A DNA stretch of 41,944 bases from Patescibacteria group bacterium (GCA_018895765.1 JAHINX010000061.1:1-41944), one strand, 5' to 3'. Numbered from the stretch's first letter, positions 3,531 through 41,944 are shown. Notes: generated by a model not told the origin, from the letters alone. Numbers and translations: made by a program.

Positions 3531-4955
3531 ATGAAAGTTATTATCATGGGTCTGGGTTTATATGAAAAAGGAAGCGGCATTTCTGCCGCCAAGTTTTTTA
3601 TTGAAAAAGGCGACGAAGTTTTGATTACTGACTTAAAAGAGAGAAAGGAGTTGCTGCGTCAGATAAAAGAATTGGAAAAATTTTGCAAGAATCATAATAA
3701 AAAAATGCCCATACTTCATCTTGGTGGACATAAAGAAGATGATTTTAAAAGTGTAGATATTGTGATGCGGAATCCCGGCGTGCCAAAGGATTCGCTTTTT
3801 TTAAAAATCGCGCGAAAAGCCGGAGCGCAAATAGAAACCGATGTTACTATTTTTATGAAAAATTGCCACGCGATGGTTATTGGCGTAACAGGCACCCGTG
3901 GAAAAAGCACCACAGCATCTTTGATCTATGAAATATTGAAAAAATCCCCCCTAACCCCCCTTTGCAAAAGGGGGGAGAAAGGGGGAATTTGGCTTGGCGG
4001 AAATATAAAAATTTCTCCGCTTTCGTTTATAGAAAAAGTTAAGCCAAGCGATATTGTTGTTTTGGAATTTTCAAGCTGGATGCTGGAAAACTTTTCTGAA
4101 TATAAAATTGCCCCGCATATTGCTGTTATCACAAATATTTATCCCGACCATTTAAATACTTACAAAAATATGGCAGAATATATTTCTGCCAAGAAAAATA
4201 TTTTTCAATATCAAAAGGCAGGAGATTATTTAGTTTTAAACGGAGAGAATAGGGAAACGAAAAAATGGAAAGGCTATGGAAAAACAATTTATTTTTATAA
4301 AGAAAATATTAAAAAGTTTTATAAATTGCCCATTAAATTGCAGGGTGAGCATAATTTAGAAAATATTAGCGCGGCATATGCAGTGGTAAAAATTATGAAG
4401 GTGCCAGTAGCAAAGATTGAAAAAGTTTTGAAAAAATTTAACGGCCTCTCCGATAGACAGGAGATAATCGCGCAAAATAAGGGGATAACTTTTGTTAATG
4501 ATACAACAGCTACAACGCCGGACGGAACAATCGCGGCTCTCCGTAGATTTGGCGCGAACCAAGAAATCAAGAAAACAAGAAAACAAAAAAACAAGAAAAC
4601 AAGAAAGCAAGAAAGCAAAAAAATCATCCTAATCTGTGGTGGAAGCGACAAGGGGCTAGACTATAAACAATTTGCAAAAGAAGCAAAAAAATATTGCAAA
4701 GCAGTAATATTTTTTCCGGGAACGGCGACGGAAAAAATAAATTATAAATTATCAATTATCAATTATCAATTAATTATTATGGCGAAAGACATGAACAGTG
4801 CGGTAAAAAAGGCAAGACAACAGGCCATTAGAGGAGATATTATATTATTGTCTCCAGCTGCTGCCAGTTTCGGTTTGTTTAAAAATGAATTTGACAGAGG
4901 AGAGGAATTTAAGAAAGTAGTAACACAGGTAACACAGAAAGAACAGCACAGATAA
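3531..4955 (+). CDS. murD: UDP-N-acetylmuramoylalanine--D-glutamate ligase
   Basis: GVTGTRGKSTT P-loop and C-terminal LLSPAAASFGLFKNEFDRGEEF (MurD signature). Carries three repeat-derived in-frame inserts (see findings). Confidence 0.85.
   Translation: MKVIIMGLGLYEKGSGISAAKFFIEKGDEVLITDLKERKELLRQIKELEKFCKNHNKKMPILHLGGHKEDDFKSVDIVMRNPGVPKDSLFLKIARKAGAQIETDVTIFMKNCHAMVIGVTGTRGKSTTASLIYEILKKSPLTPLCKRGEKGGIWLGGNIKISPLSFIEKVKPSDIVVLEFSSWMLENFSEYKIAPHIAVITNIYPDHLNTYKNMAEYISAKKNIFQYQKAGDYLVLNGENRETKKWKGYGKTIYFYKENIKKFYKLPIKLQGEHNLENISAAYAVVKIMKVPVAKIEKVLKKFNGLSDRQEIIAQNKGITFVNDTTATTPDGTIAALRRFGANQEIKKTRKQKNKKTRKQESKKIILICGGSDKGLDYKQFAKEAKKYCKAVIFFPGTATEKINYKLSIINYQLIIMAKDMNSAVKKARQQAIRGDIILLSPAAASFGLFKNEFDRGEEFKKVVTQVTQKEQHR
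3941..3990 (-). repeat. G-rich hairpin element, family A, inverted copy inside murD
   Basis: aaaaatcccccctaacccccctttgcaaaaggggggagaaagggggaattt is the reverse complement of the family seen at 17213-17310, 19410-19455 and 35907-35953. Translated in frame as SPLTPLCKRGEKGGI. Confidence 0.7.
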
Positions 4956-5694: not shown

Positions 5695-6993
5695 ATGAAA
5701 AGATTATTGAAAAAAATAGTCCCGAAATGGGCTATTAGATTTTATCATTGGCTTTTGGCAAACCTGGGAGCGCTTGTTTACAGATATCCTTCACGGAAAA
5801 TAATAGTTATAGGCGTAACCGGAACCAAAGGCAAATCAACAACTTCGTATCTTATAGCCAAGCTTTTGGAGGAGTTTGGAAATAAAGTCGGGCTTACCTC
5901 CACGATAATTTTTAAAATAGGCAAAAAGGAATGGTTGAATGATAAAAAAATGACCATGCTTGGACGTTTTCATTTGCAAAAGCTTTTGCGTCAGATGGTA
6001 AACGAAGGGTGCAAGTATGTAATTATAGAAACTTCTTCGGAAGGGATTGCGCAATATAGACATAGCGGGATAGACTATGACATAGCTGTTTTTACCAATC
6101 TTTCGCCAGAGCATATAGAGTCGCATGGTAGTTATAGTAAATATAAAAAAGCAAAATCAAAATTATTTTCTTCTCTTGAGCGCGGCCGCGAGAAAGGCGT
6201 CCCTAAAACGGCAATAATAAATCTTGACGATAAAGAAGCGGATTATTTTTTGGGATTTAATAATAATAATGTCGGCTATACTTTAAAAAATTCATATAAA
6301 AAGCAGGCAAAAAAAATAATATCGGCAAAAAATTTAAGCGTTAGCGAATCCGGTATAAAATTTTTCATATCGGACATCGAGTTAAGGAGTAAGTTATTAG
6401 GAGAATTTAATGCTTATAATATTCTTGCCGCAATCGCTTGTTGCGACGCGCTCGGCAAGAGCCTTCCGGAATTGCCCGAAAAAGTAGAAAAAATAGAATC
6501 AGTCCCCGGCAGGATGGAGTTTATAAATGAAGGGCAAAATTTTCAGGTAATTGTTGATTACGCACATGAACCGGTATCAATGCGCGCGCTTTACGGCATT
6601 GTCCGTGAAATTCCCCATAAGCGGGTTATTCATATCTTTGGCGCCACTGGCGGAGGACGCGACAAATCGCGCCGGCCGATTTTGGGAGAAATCGCAGACC
6701 AGAATGCCAGCATCATAGTTCTTACGAATGACGATCCATATGAAGAAAATCAGGAAAAAATTGTCAGTGACATAAAAAAAGGAATTAAGAAGAAAAAAGA
6801 AGGGGAATCGTTTTTTGTCGTTATGGATAGAAAAAAAGCCATAGAAGACGCTGTTATGCAGGCCGAAGAAGGAGACATACTACTTATAACCGGTAAGGGT
6901 TCTGAACAGAAAATTGCTATTGATGGAAAAATGCTTCCATGGGACGATAGAGATATTGCCCGGCAAGCCATAAAGCTAAAACTTAAAAAATAA
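5695..6993 (+). CDS. murE: UDP-N-acetylmuramoyl-L-alanyl-D-glutamate--diamino acid ligase (MurE-type Mur ligase)
   Basis: GVTGTKGKSTT, IETSSEG...FTNLSPEHIESHGSYSKYKKAK, VDYAHEP, TNDDPYEE at the DNPR position. 432 aa. Confidence 0.75.
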   Translation: MKRLLKKIVPKWAIRFYHWLLANLGALVYRYPSRKIIVIGVTGTKGKSTTSYLIAKLLEEFGNKVGLTSTIIFKIGKKEWLNDKKMTMLGRFHLQKLLRQMVNEGCKYVIIETSSEGIAQYRHSGIDYDIAVFTNLSPEHIESHGSYSKYKKAKSKLFSSLERGREKGVPKTAIINLDDKEADYFLGFNNNNVGYTLKNSYKKQAKKIISAKNLSVSESGIKFFISDIELRSKLLGEFNAYNILAAIACCDALGKSLPELPEKVEKIESVPGRMEFINEGQNFQVIVDYAHEPVSMRALYGIVREIPHKRVIHIFGATGGGRDKSRRPILGEIADQNASIIVLTNDDPYEENQEKIVSDIKKGIKKKKEGESFFVVMDRKKAIEDAVMQAEEGDILLITGKGSEQKIAIDGKMLPWDDRDIARQAIKLKLKK

Positions 6994-17212: not shown

Positions 17213-17310
17213 TTCCTCCCCGTCTTCTCCCCCTTAGGAGAAGGGGGACCCGGGGGGATTTAATAATTTTTAAGTCCCCCCTGCCCTTCTTTTTCAAAGG
17301 AGGGGACTTG
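17213..17310. repeat. family A G-rich hairpin elements, two copies arranged tail to tail
   Basis: tcttctcccccttaggagaagggggacccggggggatttaataat, followed by the inverted copy ttaagtcccccctgcccttctttttcaaaggaggggacttg. Confidence 0.7.
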
Positions 17311-18195: not shown

Positions 18196-21100
18196 TAAAA
18201 AAATCCTCTTTCTATAAAAAAGGAGGATTTTGGAATTTCAGATTTCAAATTTCAGATTTTAGATTTAATCTGATTAAATTATTTATACCGGTTATTTTGA
18301 TTGCCGGTTTTTTTGTCCCCTATTTTTCTTTTGCTTGGGACAGCCATTTTACCCATCGCGCCTTAACTTATGAAGCGGGAGAATTTTTTAATTATTTTAA
18401 TGATAGCCAACTAAGTGAAGAAGAAATTAATTGGCTGATGCAAGGAGCGCAAGAAGAAGATACTCCTCCGCGCTGGATAAACCATTTTTACAATCCAATA
18501 ACAGGCGAGGGTTGGACAGGCGATAAGCTGGGAGAAAACTCCCCAGGGCTTGTAAAATTTTTAAGCGGATTTTTTCTTTCTTCAAGAACTGCGCTTTCTG
18601 CAAAAAACTGGGCAAAAAACCGTTCCGCCCAAGCTGACTATTCATTATATAAAGGCGACCAAACCTGGCAAAAAGCGATTGATGCCTATTTGGAAGGGGA
18701 TAGAGAATCCGCTTTTGTTGCTTTGGGCCATATTCTTCATCTATTGGAAGATATGACGGTGCCGGACCATACGCGCGGAGACACTCATGCCGGCATTGTT
18801 GGCGACAAAGGAAGCCCCTTGGAAAATTGGGCAAAAGAATATAACAAAGACAAAATTGGCAAATTACAAACAGCAGAGGAATTATATAAGTCAGGCCAGA
18901 AGCCAAAAGATTTTTCAATTTTGGAAAATTATTTTGATTGGAATGCAAAATACAGTAGTGAAAATTTTTTTAGTGAGGATACAATAAATGAAAACTTAAT
19001 AGCTGTTCCAGAGTTAATTATTGGAGAAAATCAGCAAATTTACGGTTATATTAATAATTATCCCGTTTATACGGTAAAAGATAATAAAGAAACTATCAAT
19101 GATCCCCAAATCCTCACCGCTTATTGGCAGCGCCTCTCAAAGCAGGCAGTCATCTCCAGCGCCGGAGTAATAAATCTTTTTTTCAAAGAGGCCGAACGCC
19201 AATCAAAACTTCCGCAAAAAATGACAAAAAAGAGCAATACTACAACAAACACAATTTGGTCGCCATTTGGGGAGCTTACAAAATTATACAATACAGCAGT
19301 TCAGTTCGCGCAAGGTTTTTTCCCGCAAAGCACAAAAGCCGATGAATCGGTAAATGATGAGATTGTCACGTCGCAAGCTAATAGTGGTGACGAACGACTA
19401 TCAGAGCAAGCTTCTCCCCCTTCGGAGAAGGGGGATTTAGGGGGATTTAATAATAACCAATCAACAATAATCAATCAGCAATCAATAATTCCTGACCCGA
19501 CTCCCGCAAGCGAATCAATAACAGAGCCGGAAACAAATTTCTACGTCAGCCAGGTAATAGACGGCGATACGATTACGTTGAATAGCGGAGAAGATGTCCG
19601 TCTAATTGGTATGGATACGCCAGAACGCGGAGAAGAGTGTTTTGAAGAAGCAAAGCAGAAAATGGAATCAATGGTATTGGGCAAGAATATCCGTTTAGAA
19701 AAAGATACAAGTGAAACCGACAAATATAATCGGTTGTTACGTTATATTTATATAGACGGCGTGTTGGTAAATGCCGAGATGCTAAAAGAGGGATATGCGC
19801 ATCTTATGATGATACGGCCGGATACGAAATATTACAGCGCTTTCAAGTCATACGAAGAAGAAGCGAAATTTTTTGAACGCGGATGTTTATTTCAAAAGGA
19901 AGGCGTCGGTGGAGCCGATCCAATAGATGAAACGCCGGTATACACGGGCTGGTCATCAGCCGGCGGGAGTTCTAAGCCGGCGCCTCAAGCGCCAAAGGAA
20001 GAAACGCCGACTTCAACTCCGGAAACCGCCACCAGCACGTTGGAAGTAATTTTGGAAGATATAACTTCAACCTCAACTCCGCAAACTTCAACCTCAACTC
20101 CGCAAACTTCAACCTCAACTCCGGAAACTTCAACCTCAACTCCGGAAACCGCCACCAGCACGTTGGAAATCCCCGAAATTTTGCCAAATATTATTATAAA
20201 TGAAATACAGATTAGCGGAGGTCCGGGTGACACCGATAATGAATTTATAGAATTATATAATAATTCATCTGGCGCAGTTGATATTACTGATTGGAAATTA
20301 TTTAAAAAAACAGAAACGGTGCTGAGTTATAACCCTGATAAACAGCCTCCTGCGGAATATAATCTTGTTTCAAAATTCCCCACGGGCTCAACAATTCCAG
20401 CGAATTCGTATTTTCTTATTGTCCCCAAAAATGCCATTGGTAAACATGCGGATACGAATTATACCAACGGAAGCAATTTTGCCACGAGCGACGATACTCT
20501 TATTATAAGAGATGCGGACGGAAATATTATTGATAAAGTCGGTTTTGGCCTTGCGAATGACTATGAAGTACAACAAACGTATAATCCGCTGGACGGCCAA
20601 AGCATAAGCCGCACAAATTTTATCGACACGAATAATAATTTTAATGATTTTACGGTTTCCAGTTCAACGCCACAAGGGACAAGTAGCACTATGGCAATTG
20701 CGCCAGAACCAGAGCCGGAACCGGTTATTCCACCTGTCGTACCGGAACCGTCGGCGCCAACAATAGCTTGCACTACCTTTACTTACGGTACTCATAACAA
20801 AGAGGAAGGAGAAGCAGACAAAATCGCCGCCGAACCATTTCCGGATTTTTCAAATACATTAACTGTTACATTGGAAGCAGGGAAGACCTACTACACCGAC
20901 GATACAATATCCATTCCTAATAATAGAAAGTTAATAATAGAAGAAGGTGTGGTGTTAAAATTTGGAAGATGGCGCTGGGGAGGATGGATGAACTTTCCAA
21001 TCAGTTTGCGCATTTTAGGAGACCTGGAAGTAAATGGCACTGCTTCAAACCCGGTTATTTTTACAACTTTCCGCGATGACGCGCACGGCGTGGCGATTGA

Positions 21101-21742: not shown

Positions 21743-21867
21743 CACGTGTTTTTATTTTTTCTGGGGAGCAAAACGGAGCTAGGATGAACATACCAATGTA
21801 TGTTCATCGCTCTAAACAAAAAAAGACCACCCGATTGATTGGGTGGTTTTGTTTTGGGTGGTTTTGC

Positions 21868-30642: not shown

Positions 30643-30773
30643 GACTACCTCCTTATCCATAATATTAAGCGTAAATATATTTTATGTCAACCAAATTAGA
30701 AAAATATTCATAAAAATCCCCAATACTTTTCGCGAACGCGAAAAGTATTGGGGATTTAAATAAAATCAGGATT

Positions 30774-32015
30774 ATGTTTAGTAAAAAAATGGCAAAAGCA
30801 TTAAATAACCTACCTGACAAGCCCGGCGTATATCTTTTTAAAGATAATCGTGGGGAAATTATTTATGTTGGCAAAGCCGGCTCATTAAAGCGGAGAGTAA
30901 AATCATATTTTGCGCGGGCAGGGGACAGAAAAACAGAAGCGCTTGTTTCGGAAGCTATTGATTTGGAAATCCGCGAAACGCCATCTGTTCTTGAAGCTCT
31001 GATTTTGGAAGCGGAACTTATAAAAAGATTAAAACCAAAATACAACATCCGCGATAAAGACGATAAGTCATTTATTTATGTCGGCATCACGCGGGAAGAT
31101 TTTCCAAAACCGATATTGGTGCGCGGGCATGAGTTGCAAGCTATGAATTCTAAGTTTCAAGTTTCTTTTGGGCCGTTTACCAGCGCCGGCGCGCTCCGTG
31201 AAGCGTTAAAAATTTTGCGCGGAATTTTTCCTTGGTCAGAGTGTAAACCAAACCAAAACAAACCATGTTTTTATTATGGCATTAAAAAATGTCCCGGTGT
31301 ATGCGTTGGCAAAATCAGTAAAAAAGATTATCAGAAAAACATTTCAGGTTTAAAATTATTTTTTCGCGGGAAGAAGACGCAAATTATAAAAAATCTGGAA
31401 CGCGAAATGAAAGAGGCTTCAAAAGATCGCGAGTTTGAGCGCGCGGCTGAATTTCGCAATAGGATTTATGCCCTAAACCATATTCATGATATTTCTTTGA
31501 TAAAAAAAGACGATTTTATGAACTGTAGGGCTCCCGAAGCCCTACAGCATAAAGCAATGGGCAGAATTGAGGGGTATGATATATCCAATATCAGCCAAAA
31601 GCTGGCAACCGGTTCTATGGTCGTTTTTAGAGATGGCGCGCCGGAAAAAAAAGAATATAAAAAATTTCGCATAAAAAATACCAAGTCCGGCGACGTGCCA
31701 ATGCTTCGCGAGGTTTTGACGCGCAGATTTAAAAATAATTGGCCAAGTCCTGATATAATTTTGATTGATGGAGGAGAAGCGCAGGTTGGCGTTGCGGAAA
31801 AAGTTTTGAAGGCAAACAAATTGAATATTCCGGTTATTGGCATTGCCAAGGGGATCTCCAGAAAAAACGACCGTTTTGTTTTTGATTATAATGACCAGGA
31901 ATTGAAAAGAATAACTAAAATTTTTGAAAATTTATTTAAACAGGTTCGCGATGAAGCGCATCGTTTTGCGATTGGCTACCATAGAAGTTTGCGGAAAATA
32001 AAACGGCCGTTATAA
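30774..32015 (+). CDS. uvrC: excinuclease ABC subunit C, short form without the C-terminal (HhH)2 domain
   Basis: GIY-YIG (PGVYLFKDNRGEIIYVGKAGSLKRRV), a UVR domain (FERAAEFRNRI) and an endonuclease domain (IEGYDISN...DGGEAQ...RDEAHRFAI). It ends after 413 aa. Confidence 0.85.
   Translation: MFSKKMAKALNNLPDKPGVYLFKDNRGEIIYVGKAGSLKRRVKSYFARAGDRKTEALVSEAIDLEIRETPSVLEALILEAELIKRLKPKYNIRDKDDKSFIYVGITREDFPKPILVRGHELQAMNSKFQVSFGPFTSAGALREALKILRGIFPWSECKPNQNKPCFYYGIKKCPGVCVGKISKKDYQKNISGLKLFFRGKKTQIIKNLEREMKEASKDREFERAAEFRNRIYALNHIHDISLIKKDDFMNCRAPEALQHKAMGRIEGYDISNISQKLATGSMVVFRDGAPEKKEYKKFRIKNTKSGDVPMLREVLTRRFKNNWPSPDIILIDGGEAQVGVAEKVLKANKLNIPVIGIAKGISRKNDRFVFDYNDQELKRITKIFENLFKQVRDEAHRFAIGYHRSLRKIKRPL
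31521..31547 (+). repeat. family B 27-nt hairpin element in uvrC
   Basis: aactgtagggctcccgaagccctacag. Stem gtagggct/agccctac, loop cccga. Translated as NCRAPEALQ. Confidence 0.85.
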
Positions 32016-35544: not shown

Positions 35545-35630
35545 TGCCCCCGCTTTAGCGGGATTTTTTGTTTTTAACGATTTTAGATATCTCTTGCAAA
35601 AAAGCATATTTTAAGATAATATTATATAAT

Positions 35631-37109
35631 ATGCCATACAAAAAATATAAAAAGATTCATTTTATAGGGATTGGCGGAATAGGCGTAAGCGCTGTTGCTA
35701 AGTGGGCGCTTTTGGAAGGCGTGGAGGTGAGCGGTTCCGATGTGGAAAATACAGAAATAACGAGTGAGCTTCAAAAAATGGGAGCCAAAATTTTTATTGG
35801 TCATAAAGAAAAAAACATTGCGCGTGATATTGACTTAATTGTTTATTCTTCGGCCGTGCCAGCCACAAATCCTGAACGCTCGGTTTTGAGACGGATACGC
35901 CACAGCAAGTCCCTTCCTTTGGAAAAGGAAGGACAGGATGGATTTAATAATGATTTAATTCCCCAGAAATCATATTTCGAATTTTTGGGAGAAATAACCC
36001 GTGGGAAAAAATTGATTGCAGTGTCAGGGACTAATGGCAAGAGCACGACAACGGCAATGCTGGGAAAAATTTTGATTGACGCCGGTCTTGACCCACTTGT
36101 TATCGTCGGTTCAAAAATAAATGTTTTTTCGCACGGCAATTTTAATTATGGAAAAGGGGAATACGCAGTCGTGGAGGCATGCGAGCATAACGCGCATATG
36201 TTGAATCTGCATCCATGGTCAATCGTTCTTACAAATATAGAAGCAGATCATTTGGATTTTTATAAAAATTTGGACAATATTCTGGAAGCGTTTAAAAAAT
36301 ATGTCGCCAAGATAGAAAAAGGATGTTTTCTAATATATAACGGCGATGATAAAAATAGCGCCGAGGTGGCAAAAACTCACGCTTGCCGTCTTATTTCCTA
36401 TGGCGTGCATGAAGATGCGGACTTGCGGTTTGAAGAGCGCCATATCGATAAAGGCACACAGATTTTTCAAACAAAAACTGTAGGGCTCCCGAAGCCCTAC
36501 CAGATGGAATTGCAAGTACCTGGGCTTTTTAATGTTTATAATGCGATGGCGGCAATATCTATGGCAAAGGCGCTTGGTATCAAATTTGAGGTAATAAAAA
36601 AATCGCTTGCAAATTTTCGCGGGCTTTGGCGCAGGTTTGAGCACGTTGGAGAATATAATGGCGCGCCAATTATTTCCGATTACGGCCACCATCCGCACGC
36701 GATAGAAGCAACGCTTTTGGCCGCACGCGAATTTTATCCGGATAGAAGAGTTATATTAGCATACGAACCACACCAGCACCATAGGACAAAGGCTCTTTTT
36801 GCCGATTTTGTCCGCAGTTTCGACAAGGCAGATGTTCTTATTTTGGGAGAGATATATAATGTAGAAGGAAGAGTCGAAAAACAAGATTGTGATATATCTT
36901 CGCGCAAACTTGCAGACGCAATTATAAAGTATTGGGAATCGGATGAAAATAAAAAGGAGCGTACAGAGCACGAATTATTTTATTGTGAAAATAATGATGA
37001 AGTTTTGAAAGCGCTGAAAGAGACAATAAACTCCGACGACGTTGTGATAATTATGGGAGCAGGGGGGATTTACAAAGTTGCAAAAAGATTGATTGCCGCG
37101 GATTCCTAG
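35631..37109 (+). CDS. murC: UDP-N-acetylmuramate--L-alanine ligase
   Basis: The start is set at MPYKKYKKIHFIGIGGIGVSAVA. GTNGKSTT and DYGHHPHAIEATL. Carries a family A insert (35907-35953) and a family B insert (36476-36503). Confidence 0.9.
   Translation: MPYKKYKKIHFIGIGGIGVSAVAKWALLEGVEVSGSDVENTEITSELQKMGAKIFIGHKEKNIARDIDLIVYSSAVPATNPERSVLRRIRHSKSLPLEKEGQDGFNNDLIPQKSYFEFLGEITRGKKLIAVSGTNGKSTTTAMLGKILIDAGLDPLVIVGSKINVFSHGNFNYGKGEYAVVEACEHNAHMLNLHPWSIVLTNIEADHLDFYKNLDNILEAFKKYVAKIEKGCFLIYNGDDKNSAEVAKTHACRLISYGVHEDADLRFEERHIDKGTQIFQTKTVGLPKPYQMELQVPGLFNVYNAMAAISMAKALGIKFEVIKKSLANFRGLWRRFEHVGEYNGAPIISDYGHHPHAIEATLLAAREFYPDRRVILAYEPHQHHRTKALFADFVRSFDKADVLILGEIYNVEGRVEKQDCDISSRKLADAIIKYWESDENKKERTEHELFYCENNDEVLKALKETINSDDVVIIMGAGGIYKVAKRLIAADS
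35907..35953 (+). repeat. family A hairpin element (diverged copy) inside murC
   Basis: aagtcccttcctttggaaaaggaaggacaggatggatttaataatgat is translated as KSLPLEKEGQDGFNNDL. Confidence 0.6.
36476..36503 (+). repeat. family B hairpin element in murC
   Basis: aactgtagggctcccgaagccctaccag is translated as TVGLPKPYQ. Confidence 0.85.
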
Positions 37110-37213: not shown

Positions 37214-38182
37214 ATGATAAATATTTTAGAAAATCAACTCCTATCCAAATACACCACCTTTCATATTGGCGGGGCGGCCAAACATTTTGTAATTGTAAAA
37301 AATACAGAAGAATTGCAAGAGGCCTTGGAATGGGCAAAAGAGAATAATGAGAAATATTTTATCCTTGGTGGAGGGTCTAATGTGCTTTTTTCCGATGATG
37401 GATATGAGGGGCTGGTTATAAAAATTGCTTTTTTCGACATAATAATAGAAGGAGGGGGGATGATTGCCGGAGCAGGCGTTCCCTTGCTCTTAGCCGTCAA
37501 GCGCGCGGGAGATGCAGGGCTCGCGGGCTTGGAAAATTTTGCAGGCATTCCTGGCACAATTGGTGGCGCGGTTACAAATAATGCCGGCGCTTATGGATCA
37601 TCTATAGAAAAAGCCGTAGAAAAAGCCGAAATCGGCTTTGCCGTCCCGAGCGAAGTCGAGGGATCTCACAATTACAATATAAAAATAGTAGATAACGAAT
37701 GGTTTGAATTTGGTTATCGGAAAAGTAAGCTGAAATATTGGCAAGACGCTGACAAGCCGGTTATTCTACGCGTTTGGTTGAAATTGCAAAAAGAAGATAA
37801 AGAAAAATTGCAGGAAAAAATTAAAGAAGTAATGAATGACCGGATAAAGAAAGAGCCAAAGGGCTTTTGCGCCGGATGTGCTTTTAAAAATATAAAAGGA
37901 GAAGAAGTGGCAAAAATTTTGGAGAAGTTTGATTTTACTCCCGAAGAACGCGAACGCTTTGGCTCCCGTAAGGCAATTCCGACAGCCTGGTTTATTGATC
38001 ACGCGGGATTAAAGGGTAAAAAAATCGGCGGAGCCTATATTTCGGAAGAGCATGCTAATTATATAATGAATGATAGCACAGCAACCGCGGATCACGTCCT
38101 TCAGCTTGTTTCACTTGTAAAACAGCAGGTCCGTGATAAATTTGGAGTGCAATTAGAAGAAGAGGTGCAAGTAGTAGAATGA
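37214..38182 (+). CDS. murB: UDP-N-acetylenolpyruvoylglucosamine reductase
   Basis: LSKYTTFHIGGAAKHFV, GGGSNVLF, and YRKS followed by the C-terminal substrate domain. Confidence 0.9.
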   Translation: MINILENQLLSKYTTFHIGGAAKHFVIVKNTEELQEALEWAKENNEKYFILGGGSNVLFSDDGYEGLVIKIAFFDIIIEGGGMIAGAGVPLLLAVKRAGDAGLAGLENFAGIPGTIGGAVTNNAGAYGSSIEKAVEKAEIGFAVPSEVEGSHNYNIKIVDNEWFEFGYRKSKLKYWQDADKPVILRVWLKLQKEDKEKLQEKIKEVMNDRIKKEPKGFCAGCAFKNIKGEEVAKILEKFDFTPEERERFGSRKAIPTAWFIDHAGLKGKKIGGAYISEEHANYIMNDSTATADHVLQLVSLVKQQVRDKFGVQLEEEVQVVE

Positions 38183-38212
38183 CCAAGTCCCAAATCCCAA
38201 TGACCAATGAAG
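38178..38212. repeat. heptamer repeat block identical to the one after ftsE
   Basis: gaatgaccaagtcccaaatcccaatgaccaatgaag. The murB TGA stop is part of the first aatgacc unit. Confidence 0.85.
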
Positions 38213-38259
38213 GCGCTTTGCTGTCGCAAAAATAAATTATTAAAAATTAATTTAAATTT

Positions 38260-38637
38260 ATGAAATTAGAATCAATAAAATATACGGGGATAGAATCAAG
38301 CCCCGCGTTAAATGAATACGTAGAAGAAAAGATTGCGACTCTTAGTAAATATGTAGAAAATTTTGGCACTCCGCGCGATATTCGTGTGGAGCTTGAAAAA
38401 ACTACACACCACCATCAGACAGGCCCATTTTTTCGCGCTGAGGCGAATATTAATATTCCCGGGCATTTTTTCCGCGCAGAGCAGACTGCGGATGATATAT
38501 ATGACGCGATTGATATGTTAAAAAATGATTTGGAACGCCAACTTTCCGATTACTCGGATAAACTCCGCACAAAAAAGCGCGATGGTGGACAAGAGATGAA
38601 AAATATGTTAAATTATGACGAGTCAGTAGGGGAATAA
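38260..38637 (+). CDS. hpf: ribosome hibernation promoting factor (short HPF/RaiA type)
   Basis: 125 aa. S30AE-family pattern: ...SPALNEYVEEKI...RVELEK...FRAEANINIPG..FRAEQTADDIYDAIDMLKNDLERQL. Confidence 0.8.
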   Translation: MKLESIKYTGIESSPALNEYVEEKIATLSKYVENFGTPRDIRVELEKTTHHHQTGPFFRAEANINIPGHFFRAEQTADDIYDAIDMLKNDLERQLSDYSDKLRTKKRDGGQEMKNMLNYDESVGE

Positions 38638-38656
38638 AAAAAGAGCCCGCAGGCTC

Positions 38657-38884
38657 TTAAGTGAGAATTCTGTATTTAACTAAAACTGATATAAATCGCT
38701 GAGGAAGCCCGGTGGCAGCATGCGGTAAAGGCAGTCTTCCATTAGAGGAATTGATTATAACGGTCATGTCAAACTCTGTTTTATAGCTTATTACGTCAAC
38801 TTTTCCTAATTCTTTATGTATTGCGTCAGATACTGCTTTATCATCGCATATTGTATTTTGCAAAATTACGCGGTGCTTTAGCAT
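38657..38884 (-). CDS. hypothetical protein (orphan cassette)
   Basis: 75 aa counted from ATG 38884 (SD AAGGAGGG). Promoter TTGACA(38939-38934)-17-TAATAT(38916-38911). Hairpin aagagcc/ggctctt plus a T-run overlaps the stop codon. Confidence 0.6.
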   Translation of the reverse strand: MLKHRVILQNTICDDKAVSDAIHKELGKVDVISYKTEFDMTVIINSSNGRLPLPHAATGLPQRFISVLVKYRILT

Positions 38885-39015
38885 TACTCCCTCCTTTTCT
38901 TTTGTTCTTGATATTATCAAAAAATTAAATATTTGTCAAGTGTCAATGATTAGCTCCACAGAACGGGATACGGCATTCCCTTACTACTTGCTACACACTA
39001 CTTACTACATTTTTT

Positions 39016-41679
39016 ATGTTCTTCTCCGACCCAAACAAAAAAGCGTTAAAAAGAATGCAGCCATTTGTGGATAAAACCAATGAGCTGGAACCAGCATTTG
39101 AAAAAATGTCTGATTTTGATTTGCAAAATAAAAGCAAAGAACTAAAAACGCAGGCTCAAACAACTGTAGGGCTCCCGAAACCCTATAGTTTAGATGATAT
39201 TTTGCCTGAGGCGTTTGCCTTAGTGCGCGAAGCGGCAAAGAGAACATTGGGACAGCGTCATTTCGACGTTCAGCTCTTGGGCGGAGTCGTTCTTCATAAT
39301 GGAGAAATCGCGGAGATGAAAACCGGTGAAGGAAAAACCTTAACTTCCACTTTGGCGGTATATCTAAATGCTTTGGCAGGAAGGGGAGCGCACGTTGTTA
39401 CTGTAAATGATTATCTTTCCCGCCGTGACGCCATATGGATGGGGCAGATTTTTGGATTTTTAGGTCTTTCGGTTGGTATTATCAACCATATGCAGTCATT
39501 TCTATATGACGCGAGCTGGAAGGCGGAAACGCCGGAAGAATCGGAAGAAGCTGACCGCAAACGCGACCTTTATGCCAGCTTCCGTGTAAATGAGGATTTT
39601 TTGCGCCCATGTTCCCGCAAAGAAGCATATGACGCGGACATTACTTACGGCACAAACAATGAATTTGGTTTTGATTATTTGCGTGACAATATGGCAACTC
39701 GGCTGGAGGATAGAGTTCAGCGCGAATTTTATTATGCGATTGTGGATGAAGTAGATTCTATTTTAATTGATGAGGCGCGTACCCCGCTCATTATCTCGGC
39801 GCCAGCAGAAGAATCTGGCGAAATGTATGCCCGCTTTGCCCGTATTGTAAAAAATTTAAAAGAAGACGAAGATTATAATCTAGATTTAAAAATGCGCGCC
39901 GCAACGCTTACGGATGCAGGCGTGGATAAAATAGAAAAAGCGCTTAATATTCCGAATATTTATGCTGAAGGCGGAATAAAAATGGTCCATCATCTTGAGC
40001 AGGCCTTAAAAGCTGAAACACTTTTTCACCGTGACAAGGAATACGTAATCCGAGACGGAGAAGTTTTTATTGTTGATGAATTTACTGGCCGGTTAATGCC
40101 TGGTAGGAGATATAGCGAAGGGCTTCATCAGGCGATTGAGGCCAAAGAGGGCGTAAAAGTTCAGCGCGAAAACCAGACGCTAGCCAGCGTTACATTTCAA
40201 AATTATTTTAGAATGTATGAAAAGCTCGCCGGTATGACCGGCACGGCCTTGACGGAAGCGGAAGAATTTTCAAAAATTTATTTTCTTGAAACTGTGGCCA
40301 TGCCGACAAATAAGCCATTATCAAGAAAGGATTTTCCGGACAGAATTTATAAAAATAAAAAAGGAAAAATCCGCGCGGTAATAGAAGAGGTGAAAGAACT
40401 TCAGGCAAAAGGACAGCCAGTATTGGTTGGTACGGTATCGGTTGAAGAGAATGAAGAATTTAGCGAAAAATTTGAAAAAGCAGGCATACGCCATGAAATT
40501 TTGAATGCAAAAAATCATGCCCGTGAAGCGGAGATTATTGCTCAGGCAGGCAAAAAGGGCGCGGTGACTCTAGCTACCAATATGGCAGGCAGAGGCGTTG
40601 ATATTGTCTTGGGTGGTGCTCCATATAATGAGAAAGCGGCCGAAGAAATCCGCGTTTTGGGAGGCTTAGCGGTAATTGGCACTGAACGGCACGAATCGCG
40701 CCGGATCGATAATCAGCTCCGCGGACGCGCCGGACGCCAGGGCGATCCGGGCTTTAGTCGTTTTTATGTATCCTTGGAAGATGAACTGATGCGTATTTTT
40801 GCGGCCGAAAAGATAGGATATATAATGGAAAAGCTGGGTCTTCCGGAAGATACGCCGATTGAAAACGGAATGGTTTCAAAGGCTATTGAATCAGCCCAGA
40901 AAAAAGTTGAAGGACATAATTTTGATATCAGAAAGCACTTACTTGAGTATGATGATGTTATAAATCGTCATCGCGAAGCGATTTATTCACGCAGAAGAAG
41001 CATTTTGGAACGGGAGAACATAAAAGAAGATATATTAAAAATAATAGAAGACGAGCTGGAGCAGGTGATTGTTTTTCATACTTCCGATCCGGCACGTAAA
41101 AATTGGAATTTAAAAGAAATATGGCAGGTGGCAAATACAATTTTTTCTTTAGAAAAAGAAGTATTAGCAAAATTTTCAGAGATTTTGGCAGGCGAGGGGA
41201 GCGACAATCTTAGCGTCGTAAAACGCAGAGACGCGATGGTTGAGATTTTGGTTAAAAAAATGCGAGAAGAATACGAAAAAATGGAAAGTAGAATGATTGA
41301 ACAATCTGGAAACCGCGAAATTTTGCGCCAGATTGAAAAAGGCCTTAGTATGCGCGTTCTTGATACTTTATGGATAAGCCATCTTGAAGAAATTGATTAT
41401 TTACGTACAAGTATCGGTTTGCGTGGAATTGCCGGCAAAGATCCTTTGGTGGAATTTAAGCGCGAAGCATATCGCCTTTGGAATGAGCTCCAGTCCGCAA
41501 TTGATAAGCAAATGGCGTACTCTATTTTTAAAATTGAACTTGCGCAGAATATGGCCCCCCAGTCTCCCTTTAAAAATCAAAACGTGAATGCTCCTTTAGA
41601 GCAAAAAGAAAAAGCTGGTCGCAATGATCCTTGTCCCTGTGGAAGCGGTAAAAAATACAAAAAATGCTGTGGCGTGTAA
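39016..41679 (+). CDS. secA: preprotein translocase ATPase SecA
   Basis: 887 aa. LPEAFALVREA, MKTGEGKTL, DEVDSILIDEARTPLIIS, and the C-terminal zinc motif CPCGSGKKYKKCCG. Confidence 0.95.
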   Translation: MFFSDPNKKALKRMQPFVDKTNELEPAFEKMSDFDLQNKSKELKTQAQTTVGLPKPYSLDDILPEAFALVREAAKRTLGQRHFDVQLLGGVVLHNGEIAEMKTGEGKTLTSTLAVYLNALAGRGAHVVTVNDYLSRRDAIWMGQIFGFLGLSVGIINHMQSFLYDASWKAETPEESEEADRKRDLYASFRVNEDFLRPCSRKEAYDADITYGTNNEFGFDYLRDNMATRLEDRVQREFYYAIVDEVDSILIDEARTPLIISAPAEESGEMYARFARIVKNLKEDEDYNLDLKMRAATLTDAGVDKIEKALNIPNIYAEGGIKMVHHLEQALKAETLFHRDKEYVIRDGEVFIVDEFTGRLMPGRRYSEGLHQAIEAKEGVKVQRENQTLASVTFQNYFRMYEKLAGMTGTALTEAEEFSKIYFLETVAMPTNKPLSRKDFPDRIYKNKKGKIRAVIEEVKELQAKGQPVLVGTVSVEENEEFSEKFEKAGIRHEILNAKNHAREAEIIAQAGKKGAVTLATNMAGRGVDIVLGGAPYNEKAAEEIRVLGGLAVIGTERHESRRIDNQLRGRAGRQGDPGFSRFYVSLEDELMRIFAAEKIGYIMEKLGLPEDTPIENGMVSKAIESAQKKVEGHNFDIRKHLLEYDDVINRHREAIYSRRRSILERENIKEDILKIIEDELEQVIVFHTSDPARKNWNLKEIWQVANTIFSLEKEVLAKFSEILAGEGSDNLSVVKRRDAMVEILVKKMREEYEKMESRMIEQSGNREILRQIEKGLSMRVLDTLWISHLEEIDYLRTSIGLRGIAGKDPLVEFKREAYRLWNELQSAIDKQMAYSIFKIELAQNMAPQSPFKNQNVNAPLEQKEKAGRNDPCPCGSGKKYKKCCGV
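39162..39188 (+). repeat. family B hairpin element in secA
   Basis: aactgtagggctcccgaaaccctatag is translated as TVGLPKPYS, just upstream of the conserved LPEAFA segment. Confidence 0.85.
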
Positions 41680-41680
41680 T

Positions 41681-41724
41681 ACAAGGACGTTCCTTGTAAG
41701 ATTGACAAGGAACGTCCTTGTAAG
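41681..41724. repeat. pair of 17-nt hairpins (REP-like doublet) upstream of the RAYT-like gene
   Basis: acaagga-cgt-tccttgt-aag (41681-41700) and acaagga-acg-tccttgt-aag (41705-41724). The stems are the same and the loops are complementary. TTGACA(41702-41707)-17-TATAGG overlaps the second hairpin. Confidence 0.75.
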
Positions 41725-41769
41725 TATAGGATAGTGTATTTTATAAATAAAAGTTGATAAAATTGATAT

Positions 41770-41944
41770 ATGCGAGATGATAGATATAAAAATTTTGCCG
41801 AAGGAGCCGTATATCATATTTATAATCGAGGCAATAATAAACAAAGTATTTTTTTAGATAAAGATGATTATAAATTTTTTATAACTCGATTAAGGCAAAA
41901 TCTTTATCCTGATGAATTATTAAAACGTATAGATCCTTTGCCAT
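41770..41944 (+). CDS. IS200/Y1-family transposase, RAYT-like (5' part only, cut by the window edge)
   Basis: MRDDRYKNFAEGAVYHIYNRGNNKQSIFLDKDDYKFFITRLRQNL... matches the N-terminal pattern of REP-associated tyrosine transposases (H.I.RGNN.Q.IF..D.DY..F). The ORF runs off the end of the window. Confidence 0.7.
   Translation, partial: MRDDRYKNFAEGAVYHIYNRGNNKQSIFLDKDDYKFFITRLRQNLYPDELLKRIDPLP

Follow-up and report, generated by a model that had tools for sequence, protein, structure and literature searches.

What gene is cut off at the end of this contig, do the two small hairpins in front of it belong to it, and could its product be what spreads hairpins through the rest of the genome? The stretch analysed here, which we call the window, is 41,944 nt long and is the entire contig C63 of genome G000, an assembly of 832 kb in 76 contigs with 38.5% GC, whose related records carry Patescibacteria or Parcubacteria-group MAG names. 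A first-pass annotation took the truncated ORF for the start of a RAYT-type Y1 transposase gene with its cognate hairpins, and saw in it a plausible mobiliser of the hairpin families of this genome, acting in coding DNA as well as between genes. The features concerned are collected in Table 1.

Table 1. Features at the end of the window, their continuation beyond it, and copies of two other hairpin families in the window.
Feature	Coordinates	Strand	Remarks
secA	39016-41679	+	887 aa; ORF plus C-terminal CPCGSGKKYKKCCG motif; SecA Pfam domains called on the identical L157 gene
REP-like hairpin copy 1	41681-41697	+	ACAAGGA-CGT-TCCTTGT; 7-bp stem, 8 bp counting flanking T/A
Spacer between hairpins 1 and 2	7 nt		AAGATTG
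REP-like hairpin copy 2	41705-41721	+	ACAAGGA-ACG-TCCTTGT
REPIN-like doublet	41680-41722	none	Perfect 18-bp stem, 7-nt loop, formed on either strand
Promoter-like TTGACA-17-TATAGG	41702-41730 (TTGACA 41702-41707)	+	Overlaps hairpin 2; weak
RAYT-type Y1/HUH gene, 5' 175 nt	41770-41944	+	Residues 1-58, with conserved H16 and R20; cut at contig end
Full RAYT-type gene	41770 to window-equivalent 42393	+	624 nt, completed from L157
Downstream doublet	Window-equivalent 42396-42412 and 42426-42442		Beyond the window; L157 4627 and 4657
GTAGGG...CCCTAC copies	31525-31545 and 36480-36500		Inside long ORFs 30774-32015 and 35568-37109; 18 more on other contigs
G/C-run hairpins	3955-3975, 17224-17248, 19411-19435, 35912-35932		Also on many other contigs

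Hairpin 1 lies 1 nt past the secA stop codon. The pair of 17-nt hairpins with identical 7-bp stems, complementary loops and AAG after each is present exactly as first described, and hairpin 2 is the precise reverse complement of hairpin 1. Folded as DNA, the doublet forms one 18-bp hairpin on the plus strand (dG -20.2 kcal/mol, z = -9.8) and does nearly the same on the minus strand (dG -19.9, z -11.4). A chance origin of the pair is excluded, because the pattern ACAAGGANNNTCCTTGT has 2 matches in the window against 0.00 expected from 100 shuffles of it. The promoter that had been proposed to overlap hairpin 2 fared less well: its two hexamers are there at the right spacing, but the -10 hexamer is poor, with no T at position 6, the site is absent from the output of a consensus promoter scan, and it is kept neither in the ortholog of the sister species G001 nor in the downstream doublet described below. 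Behind secA, the promoter/terminator scan called no terminator, and the hairpins have no T-tract.

The ORF at the contig end (41770-41943, open at its 3' end) encodes MRDDRYKNFAEGAVYHIYNRGNNKQSIFLDKDDYKFFITRLRQNLYPDELLKRIDPLP, and Pfam finds no match on this 58-aa fragment alone because the fragment stops before the HUH motif. The gene identification is built instead on a full-length copy plus orthologs. Searching with the G001 ortholog retrieved a protein of 207 aa, P0002, whose first 58 residues are exactly those of the window ORF. Its contig, L157 (NCBI GCA_022012845.1), is 100% identical to window positions 37770-41944 over 4175 nt, runs on for a further 4.3 kb and, judged by this identity, comes from the same strain as the window genome. 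The remainder of the gene was not found in the G000 assembly, and the genes that lie downstream in G001 are likewise missing from it; the position of the contig end inside the gene is a matter of assembly, not of biology. We also considered the contig end as the mark of a multi-copy repeat and ruled this out, as no other contig shares the sequence and L157 reads through it.

In L157 the hairpin recurs after the gene, where the first-pass annotation had suggested looking for it, and it does so as a second doublet: ACAAGGACGTTCCTTGT begins 3 nt past the stop codon and ACAAGGAACGTCCTTGT follows 13 nt further on, together folding into a 21-bp stem (dG -22.2). The layout of the unit, roughly 0.75 kb in all, is [-> <-] gene [-> <-]. 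The hairpin feet read (T)ACAAGG, the T at position -1 being the only thing common to the four copies, and none of the four has a GT[AG]G guide tetranucleotide at its foot. Directly after the unit, in G000 as in G001, there is a 57-aa ORF with two CxxC pairs (Zn-ribbon-like; L157 4699-4872 and L006 2150-2326), which in L157 starts about 75 nt past the downstream doublet and has no Pfam family on record.

The full-length protein carries the motifs NHFHIIL (H73-F-H75), YIHQNP (Y133), FQG and WSSY, so that both the HUH pair and the single catalytic Tyr of HUH/Y1 nucleases, the latter on the C-terminal helix, are in place. Six residues (H16, R20, H73, H75, Y133 and N137) are invariant in 77 aligned relatives. 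P0002 passes the Pfam cut-off for Y1_Tnp (PF01797; 27.9 bits vs 23), and its sole NCBIfam match is REP_Tyr_transpos (NF047646), at 47.6 bits against an equivalog cut-off of 80 that it does not reach; all 77 relatives match this model and no other NCBIfam model. When the profile of the 77 relatives was compared with PDB sequences, the best match was 4ER8, the E. coli TnpA-REP (E 3e-6, with ISDra2 TnpA at 0.04), a match that only the profile reached, as phmmer with the single G001 protein found none among the same sequences. The fold was tested on the ortholog L026, which is about 51% identical to P0002, rather than on P0002 itself. Its AF2 model (pLDDT 90.9) again had 4ER8 as the top Foldseek match (E 2e-7, with an rmsd of 2.7 Å across 150 columns). 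The TnpA proteins of IS200, IS608 and ISDra2 came next, and the top 30 matches were Y1 transposases throughout. Full-length motifs, family matches and doublets on both sides identify a RAYT-type Y1/HUH gene between cognate hairpins, as had been proposed from its first 58 codons.

The Tyr motif of P0002, Y---NP within YIHQNP, is of class 2: Y---NP is the signature of class-2 TnpA-REP proteins and Y---Q that of IS200 subclass 1.1 (PMC6006769, Table 1). Within class 2, P0002 appears by its motifs to resemble TnpA-Y1 subclass 2.1 (Bertels Group 1, or TIRYT) most closely, its NHFH, FQG, YIHQNP and WSSY answering to the set NH[YF]H, FQ, Y[IV]H.NP and SS tail, a match judged by eye against PMC6006769 Table 1 rather than from a tree with reference sequences. 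That subclass is reported as not REP-associated, with no REP-like structures nearby (PMC6006769). As for the distal HTH (Bac_DnaA_C / HTH_23 / HTH_28), Pfam calls nothing beyond Y1_Tnp in P0002 at E up to 1, and the C-terminus of the L026 model is one long helix (residues 180-205).

In the sister species G001 the gene occupies the same site after secA and its product is 79% identical in amino acids; the order in both G001 and L157 is secA, hairpin, gene, hairpin, small Zn-ribbon ORF, FKBP. Comparison of the G000 and G001 genes gives a dN/dS of 0.19, with a dS of 0.72 vs 0.98 for secA. The gene is single-copy in each of the two genomes, with paralogs at most 42% identical. Single copy, vertical inheritance and purifying selection are among the marks of RAYTs, and the profile of this gene is housekeeping-like, as for RAYTs (PMC5581495), not insertion-sequence-like.

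The hairpins have diverged together with the gene. In G001 the hairpin TGTTAAGGACGTACCTTAACA stands 40 nt before the gene start, and directly behind the stop codon comes its exact inverse; these are the only two copies in the 99%-complete genome. The single upstream hairpin of G001 aligns with copy 1 of the window; the hairpin sequences are TTAAGGACGTA... in G001 and ACAAGGACGTT... in G000. Their alignment keeps the core AAGGACGT-N-CCTT, and the outer three stem pairs, TAC...GTA in G000 and GTT...AAC in G001, are altered on both sides, in a compensatory manner. Within each genome the copies are identical to one another. Every copy of a genome having changed at several sites in the same way, independent origin of the changes is ruled out, and the copies must have been re-copied or homogenised after the species split: the hairpins evolved concertedly, with compensatory changes.

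The same arrangement extends across related loci. Among 74 that could be analysed, mostly from Patescibacteria, the upstream and downstream flanks share an exact repeat of at least 12 nt in 58, vs 18 of 733 mismatched flank pairs taken as control. A gene flanked on both sides by its own inverted palindromic repeat, the layout of a REPtron, is thus found in the window strain, in G001 and in most of the 74 relatives, with the upstream hairpin ending 5-30 nt before the start codon in many of them. The stems are lineage-specific, each Y1 gene among the 74 loci carrying a hairpin of its own; those of the closest clade include ACAAGG, ACAATGG, ACAAAGA and TTAAGG. A centred apex RGG-N5-CCY, present in the window hairpin, occurs in 39 of 132 flanking hairpins (30%); among the remaining hairpins of these loci the figure is 10 of 274, and in G000 it is 8 of 1145 hairpins (0.7-3.6%). 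The exact 17-mer was also met at 49 loci in metagenome contigs, which is roughly the chance level for a 17-mer; 8 of the 49 adjoin a Y1 gene, and none came from the window's strain.

How far has this hairpin spread? In G000 the family consists of the four copies around the gene, with no dispersed population. Outside the unit, the assembly contains no copy of the ACAAGGA hairpin at 0-3 mismatches, a count that covers 832 kb at 89.5% completeness and leaves the absent tenth as a place where copies could hide. At 4 mismatches there are 8 further matches (10 with two real copies), vs 13-23 in shuffled genomes, and none of the 8 keeps the stem. The first-pass annotation had named a lack of further acaagga hairpins in the genome as counting against it, and outside the unit this is what the assembly shows. 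Relative G012 has three copies of its variant, all at its gene. Two copies of ATGGTCAAGGCTCAACCTTGACCAT in G000 (C2:12225-12249 and C3:21195-21219) have the apex CAAGG-N5-CCTTG in common with the window hairpin, differ from it in foot and loop, and are possibly left over from a related REP type.

Other relatives have dispersed copies. G034 has nine copies of ACAAGGAC[G/C]GTCCTTGT. Three belong to its gene; the other six are dispersed, for the most part in inverted doublets 39-42 nt long, and four of the loci lie inside long ORFs (murG, tgt, glycosyltransferase and thiI), where they encode TRTVLV/KDRPC-type peptides. G002, which belongs to another genus of the same family, has four copies that form two doublets of the exact G000 17-mer (its C10:6620-6658 and C29:187-242; L017 and L018), one of them in frame in the ORF of a 610-aa membrane/TPR protein. 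A cognate gene was not found in the 94%-complete G002 assembly, and its doublets are either orphan REPINs or belong to a gene that was left unassembled. At the G000 site orthologous to one G002 doublet there is no such hairpin. The proteins bearing the intragenic copies of G034 and G002 are 32-50% identical to their G000 orthologs, and the residues encoded by the hairpins belong to variable loops where the alignments have gaps of 0-6 aa; clean insertion boundaries cannot be drawn from them. In the wider lineage the hairpin family moves, the doublet being its unit, but in G000 it is confined to the REPtron; the earlier suggestion that it inserts into coding DNA in this genome finds no support, in-frame copies having been seen only in the relatives G034 and G002.

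The window genome does have abundant hairpins of other kinds. The 27-nt GTAGGG...CCCTAC family numbers 20 copies in G000 (0 for a reversed control pattern). Its canonical GTAG double foot is also that of the REPs of TnpA-Y1 subclass 2.4; no Y1 gene of the assembly is flanked by its copies. The most abundant families are G/C-run hairpins (TCCCCCTTTGGAAAAGGGGGA, CCTCCCTTTGGAAAAGGGAGG and CCCTCCTTTTCCAAAGGAGGG), with about 50 copies whose stem is at least 8 bp, often paired some 61 nt apart; several fall within long ORFs. ACAAGGA-NNN-TCCTTGT bears no sequence relation to the abundant families of G000. There are three Y1 genes in the assembly, and the two others, on contigs C10 and C17, each come with a different hairpin of their own.

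The C10 gene (42047-42861; L003) is a second RAYT-type gene, of 228 aa with NHFHLLL and YIHLNP. A copy of ATGTGCAGAATCCAATCTCGCACAT precedes its start, another lies just after its stop, an inverted one 30 nt further on, and a one-mismatch copy sits inside the coding sequence. The Y1 gene on C17 (1440-2078; L004) is divergent, with HYH present; two AGCCGACTAAAGTCGGGTAAAT copies precede it and the contig ends in a AGCCGACTAAAGTCGGGTAAAT repeat. A linked hairpin, GGTAAATA-N7-TATTTACC, lies near contig ends in at least 5 of the 6 other contigs carrying it, the pattern that a multi-copy element would give by interrupting the assembly. The thiI ortholog on C49 (about 6520-6880) has an insertion of about 59 aa relative to the ThiI of G034, rich in PSFPPLEKGD/FSKGGG, which looks like translated G-run hairpins. 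In the window itself, positions 30714-30757 form a perfect palindrome with a 20-bp stem (AAATCCCCAATACTTTTCGC GAAC ...), with longer relatives at C49:5250-5287 and 5975-6028, and at 21783-21808 and 21826-21847 ATGAACATAC-N4-GTATGTTCAT, which has six copies in G000, adjoins ACCACCC-N8-GGGTGGT. The C10 RAYT gene, too, is followed at a distance of 110 nt by an ACCACCC hairpin similar to this one. Contig C39 (3770-3880) holds a tandem 53-nt repeat with a GTAGGGAACGCATATATGCGTTCCCTAC hairpin in each unit. The 'gtccttgt' found beside GTAGGG hairpins on C39, which we examined as possible kin of the window hairpin, belongs to this unrelated tandem repeat and is a chance resemblance.

We read the unit, with a probability of about 0.8, as a REPtron: a single-copy, vertically inherited class-2 TnpA-Y1 gene of RAYT/TnpA-REP type between two REPIN-like doublets of its own hairpin. 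Gene identity, motifs, fold class, flank architecture, synteny, purifying selection, hairpin evolution and copy numbers, on which this reading draws, are all direct observations. Some points count against it. A dispersed REP population, the defining trait of RAYTs, is absent from G000, G001 and G012; the GT[AG]G guide is lacking, the NCBIfam cut-off is missed and the protein resembles subclass 2.1; and the palindrome, being perfect, could just as well serve a dimeric protein as its operator in double-stranded DNA. Autonomous movement of the whole 0.75-kb unit as an IS200-like insertion sequence, with the hairpins as its left and right ends, strikes us as improbable. Hairpins do stand at both ends of the unit, close to the start and stop codons, and metagenome loci L132 and L152 have two 17-mers in direct orientation 711 nt apart; the unit is patchily distributed in the class (19 of 61 genomes), and in G002 other genes follow secA and there is no ortholog. 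However, several near-identical copies would be expected of such an element, and neither G000 nor G001 has more than one copy of the gene, its paralogs being at most 42% identical. The two species share site and neighbours, with a dS like that of secA and a low dN/dS. The Tyr motif is that of class 2 and not the Y---Q of IS200 subclass 1.1 (PMC6006769), TnpA-REP rather than an IS200-family transposase is the best match in both sequence and fold, and it is the doublets, not the gene, that are dispersed in G034 and G002.

We think it very unlikely that the hairpins are expression signals only, serving as a secA terminator or insulator, or as an operator or 5'-UTR structure for the Y1 gene. Hairpin 1 follows the secA stop almost immediately, TTGACA overlaps hairpin 2, the upstream hairpin is close to the start codon in many relatives, and the layout recalls the left-end structures of IS200. 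Those structures block read-through and hide the ribosome-binding site. A purely regulatory role is nonetheless hard to reconcile with the lack of a T-tract or terminator call, with a promoter-like site that is weak and not conserved, with the recurrence of the same hairpin after the Y1 gene, and with the identical 17-mers that G002 and G034 carry at unrelated sites and within ORFs. As a side-role of the doublets, termination of secA or a 5'-UTR structure would be compatible with a REPtron and is possible but unsupported. Equally small is the probability we give to the idea that the RAYT acts in trans on the G/C-run, 27-nt GTAGGG...CCCTAC and other families and drives their spread into genes. 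Hairpin families abound in the genome, several of them with copies in long ORFs of the window, and just three Y1 genes, none flanked by those families, are available in the assembly to account for them. Yet the window hairpin is unrelated to them in sequence and lacks the GTAG double foot of the GTAGGG family, and each Y1 gene across the 74 loci has its own lineage-specific hairpin. The role of general mobiliser that the first-pass annotation gave to this gene is therefore unsupported, because published work pairs every RAYT with a REP family of its own (PMC6006769).

If the unit is a REPtron, analogy with TnpA-REP (PMC3479197) and with the TnpA proteins of IS608 and ISDra2 suggests that its protein would bind single-stranded DNA at the hairpin. 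Cleavage would occur beside the hairpin, with Tyr133 as the likely nucleophile and His73 and His75 holding the metal, and the strands would be rejoined after the cut. This activity may be what keeps the flanking copies identical to each other and, in some relatives, may copy the doublet to new sites.

The reference case for RAYTs and REPtrons is the E. coli YafM TnpA-REP (4ER8) with its flanking REP/REPIN sequences (Nunvar 2010; Bertels & Rainey 2011, PMC3116915; Messing 2012, PMC3479197). Our unit is like it in having HUH plus a single Tyr in Y---NP, the best fold and profile match, a single-copy, vertically inherited gene under purifying selection, inverted REPIN doublets of its own hairpin, and co-evolution of hairpin and protein. 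It is unlike it in that the hairpin is very short (17 nt) and has no GT[AG]G guide, in the presence of only four copies, all at the gene, without dispersed REPs in G000, and in the protein, which has 207 rather than 165 aa, a WSSY tail and a C-terminal helix, and misses the NCBIfam equivalog cut-off. The second comparison is with the TIRYTs and TIRtrons of TnpA-Y1 subclass 2.1, or Bertels Group 1 (Di Nocera 2013, PMC3733652; Quentin 2018, PMC6006769; Bertels 2017, PMC5581495). Here the likeness lies in the NH[YF]H, FQ, Y[IV]H.NP and SS-tail motifs, in low copy number, in flanking inverted repeats with partial or full self-complementarity, which in some cases make up small families of dimers, and in occurrence in species without GTAG REPs. 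The window protein differs, however, in having no detected distal HTH (DnaA-C-like) and in its length (207 aa vs a median of 238), and its repeats are not long TIRs with GGGGWSAS but short, clean hairpins; whereas subclass 2.1 is reported without nearby REP-like structures, repeats are present at 58 of 74 loci here.

With the TnpA proteins of IS200/IS605 elements (IS608, ISDra2 and IS200) the window protein shares the HUH/Y1 fold, these filling Foldseek ranks 2-30. The mechanism of that family is recognition of subterminal DNA hairpins. The Y---Q motif, the high number of near-identical copies and the frequent tnpB partner of such elements are all absent here, and their ends are direct hairpins on one strand, whereas the window gene has symmetric inverted doublets at its flanks. 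Rickettsia palindromic elements, reportedly from Ogata 2000, have to our knowledge no known cognate enzyme. The doublets in frame in the murG, tgt, thiI and glycosyltransferase genes of G034 and in G002 are like these elements and other intragenic REPs (Di Nocera 2013, PMC3733652), unlike the window's own genome, which shows no in-gene copies of the ACAAGGA hairpin. REPtrons, TIRtrons, REP-less tyrosine-transposase genes with flanking repeats and intragenic REPs have all been described (PMC3733652, PMC6006769), and none of the RAYT/REPIN papers listed by our literature search mentions Patescibacteria.

These results settle the identity of the truncated ORF and separate its enzyme from the in-gene hairpin families of the genome, which need another explanation. 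Their main value is thus negative, in that the unit is not the source of the in-gene hairpins. They also add a clean case of CPR RAYT-type genes bracketed by lineage-specific hairpins even without a dispersed REP population, which suggests that the flanking copies matter to the gene itself. The G000 and G001 units, with enzymes 79% identical and hairpins that differ by three compensatory pairs, are a ready-made test of how such nucleases read their hairpins. More tentatively, and with some doubt on our part, Patescibacteria may carry a large undescribed branch of RAYT-type genes that are subclass-2.1-like, have no HTH tail and, in contrast to published statements on subclass 2.1, form true REPtrons, each enzyme co-evolving with a short hairpin whose foot changes in a compensatory manner and whose RGG-N5-CCY apex is kept, and with doublets that sometimes colonise essential genes in frame. 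If so, the secA-linked unit and the diverged enzyme and hairpin of G001 would be a natural matched set for working out the recognition code.
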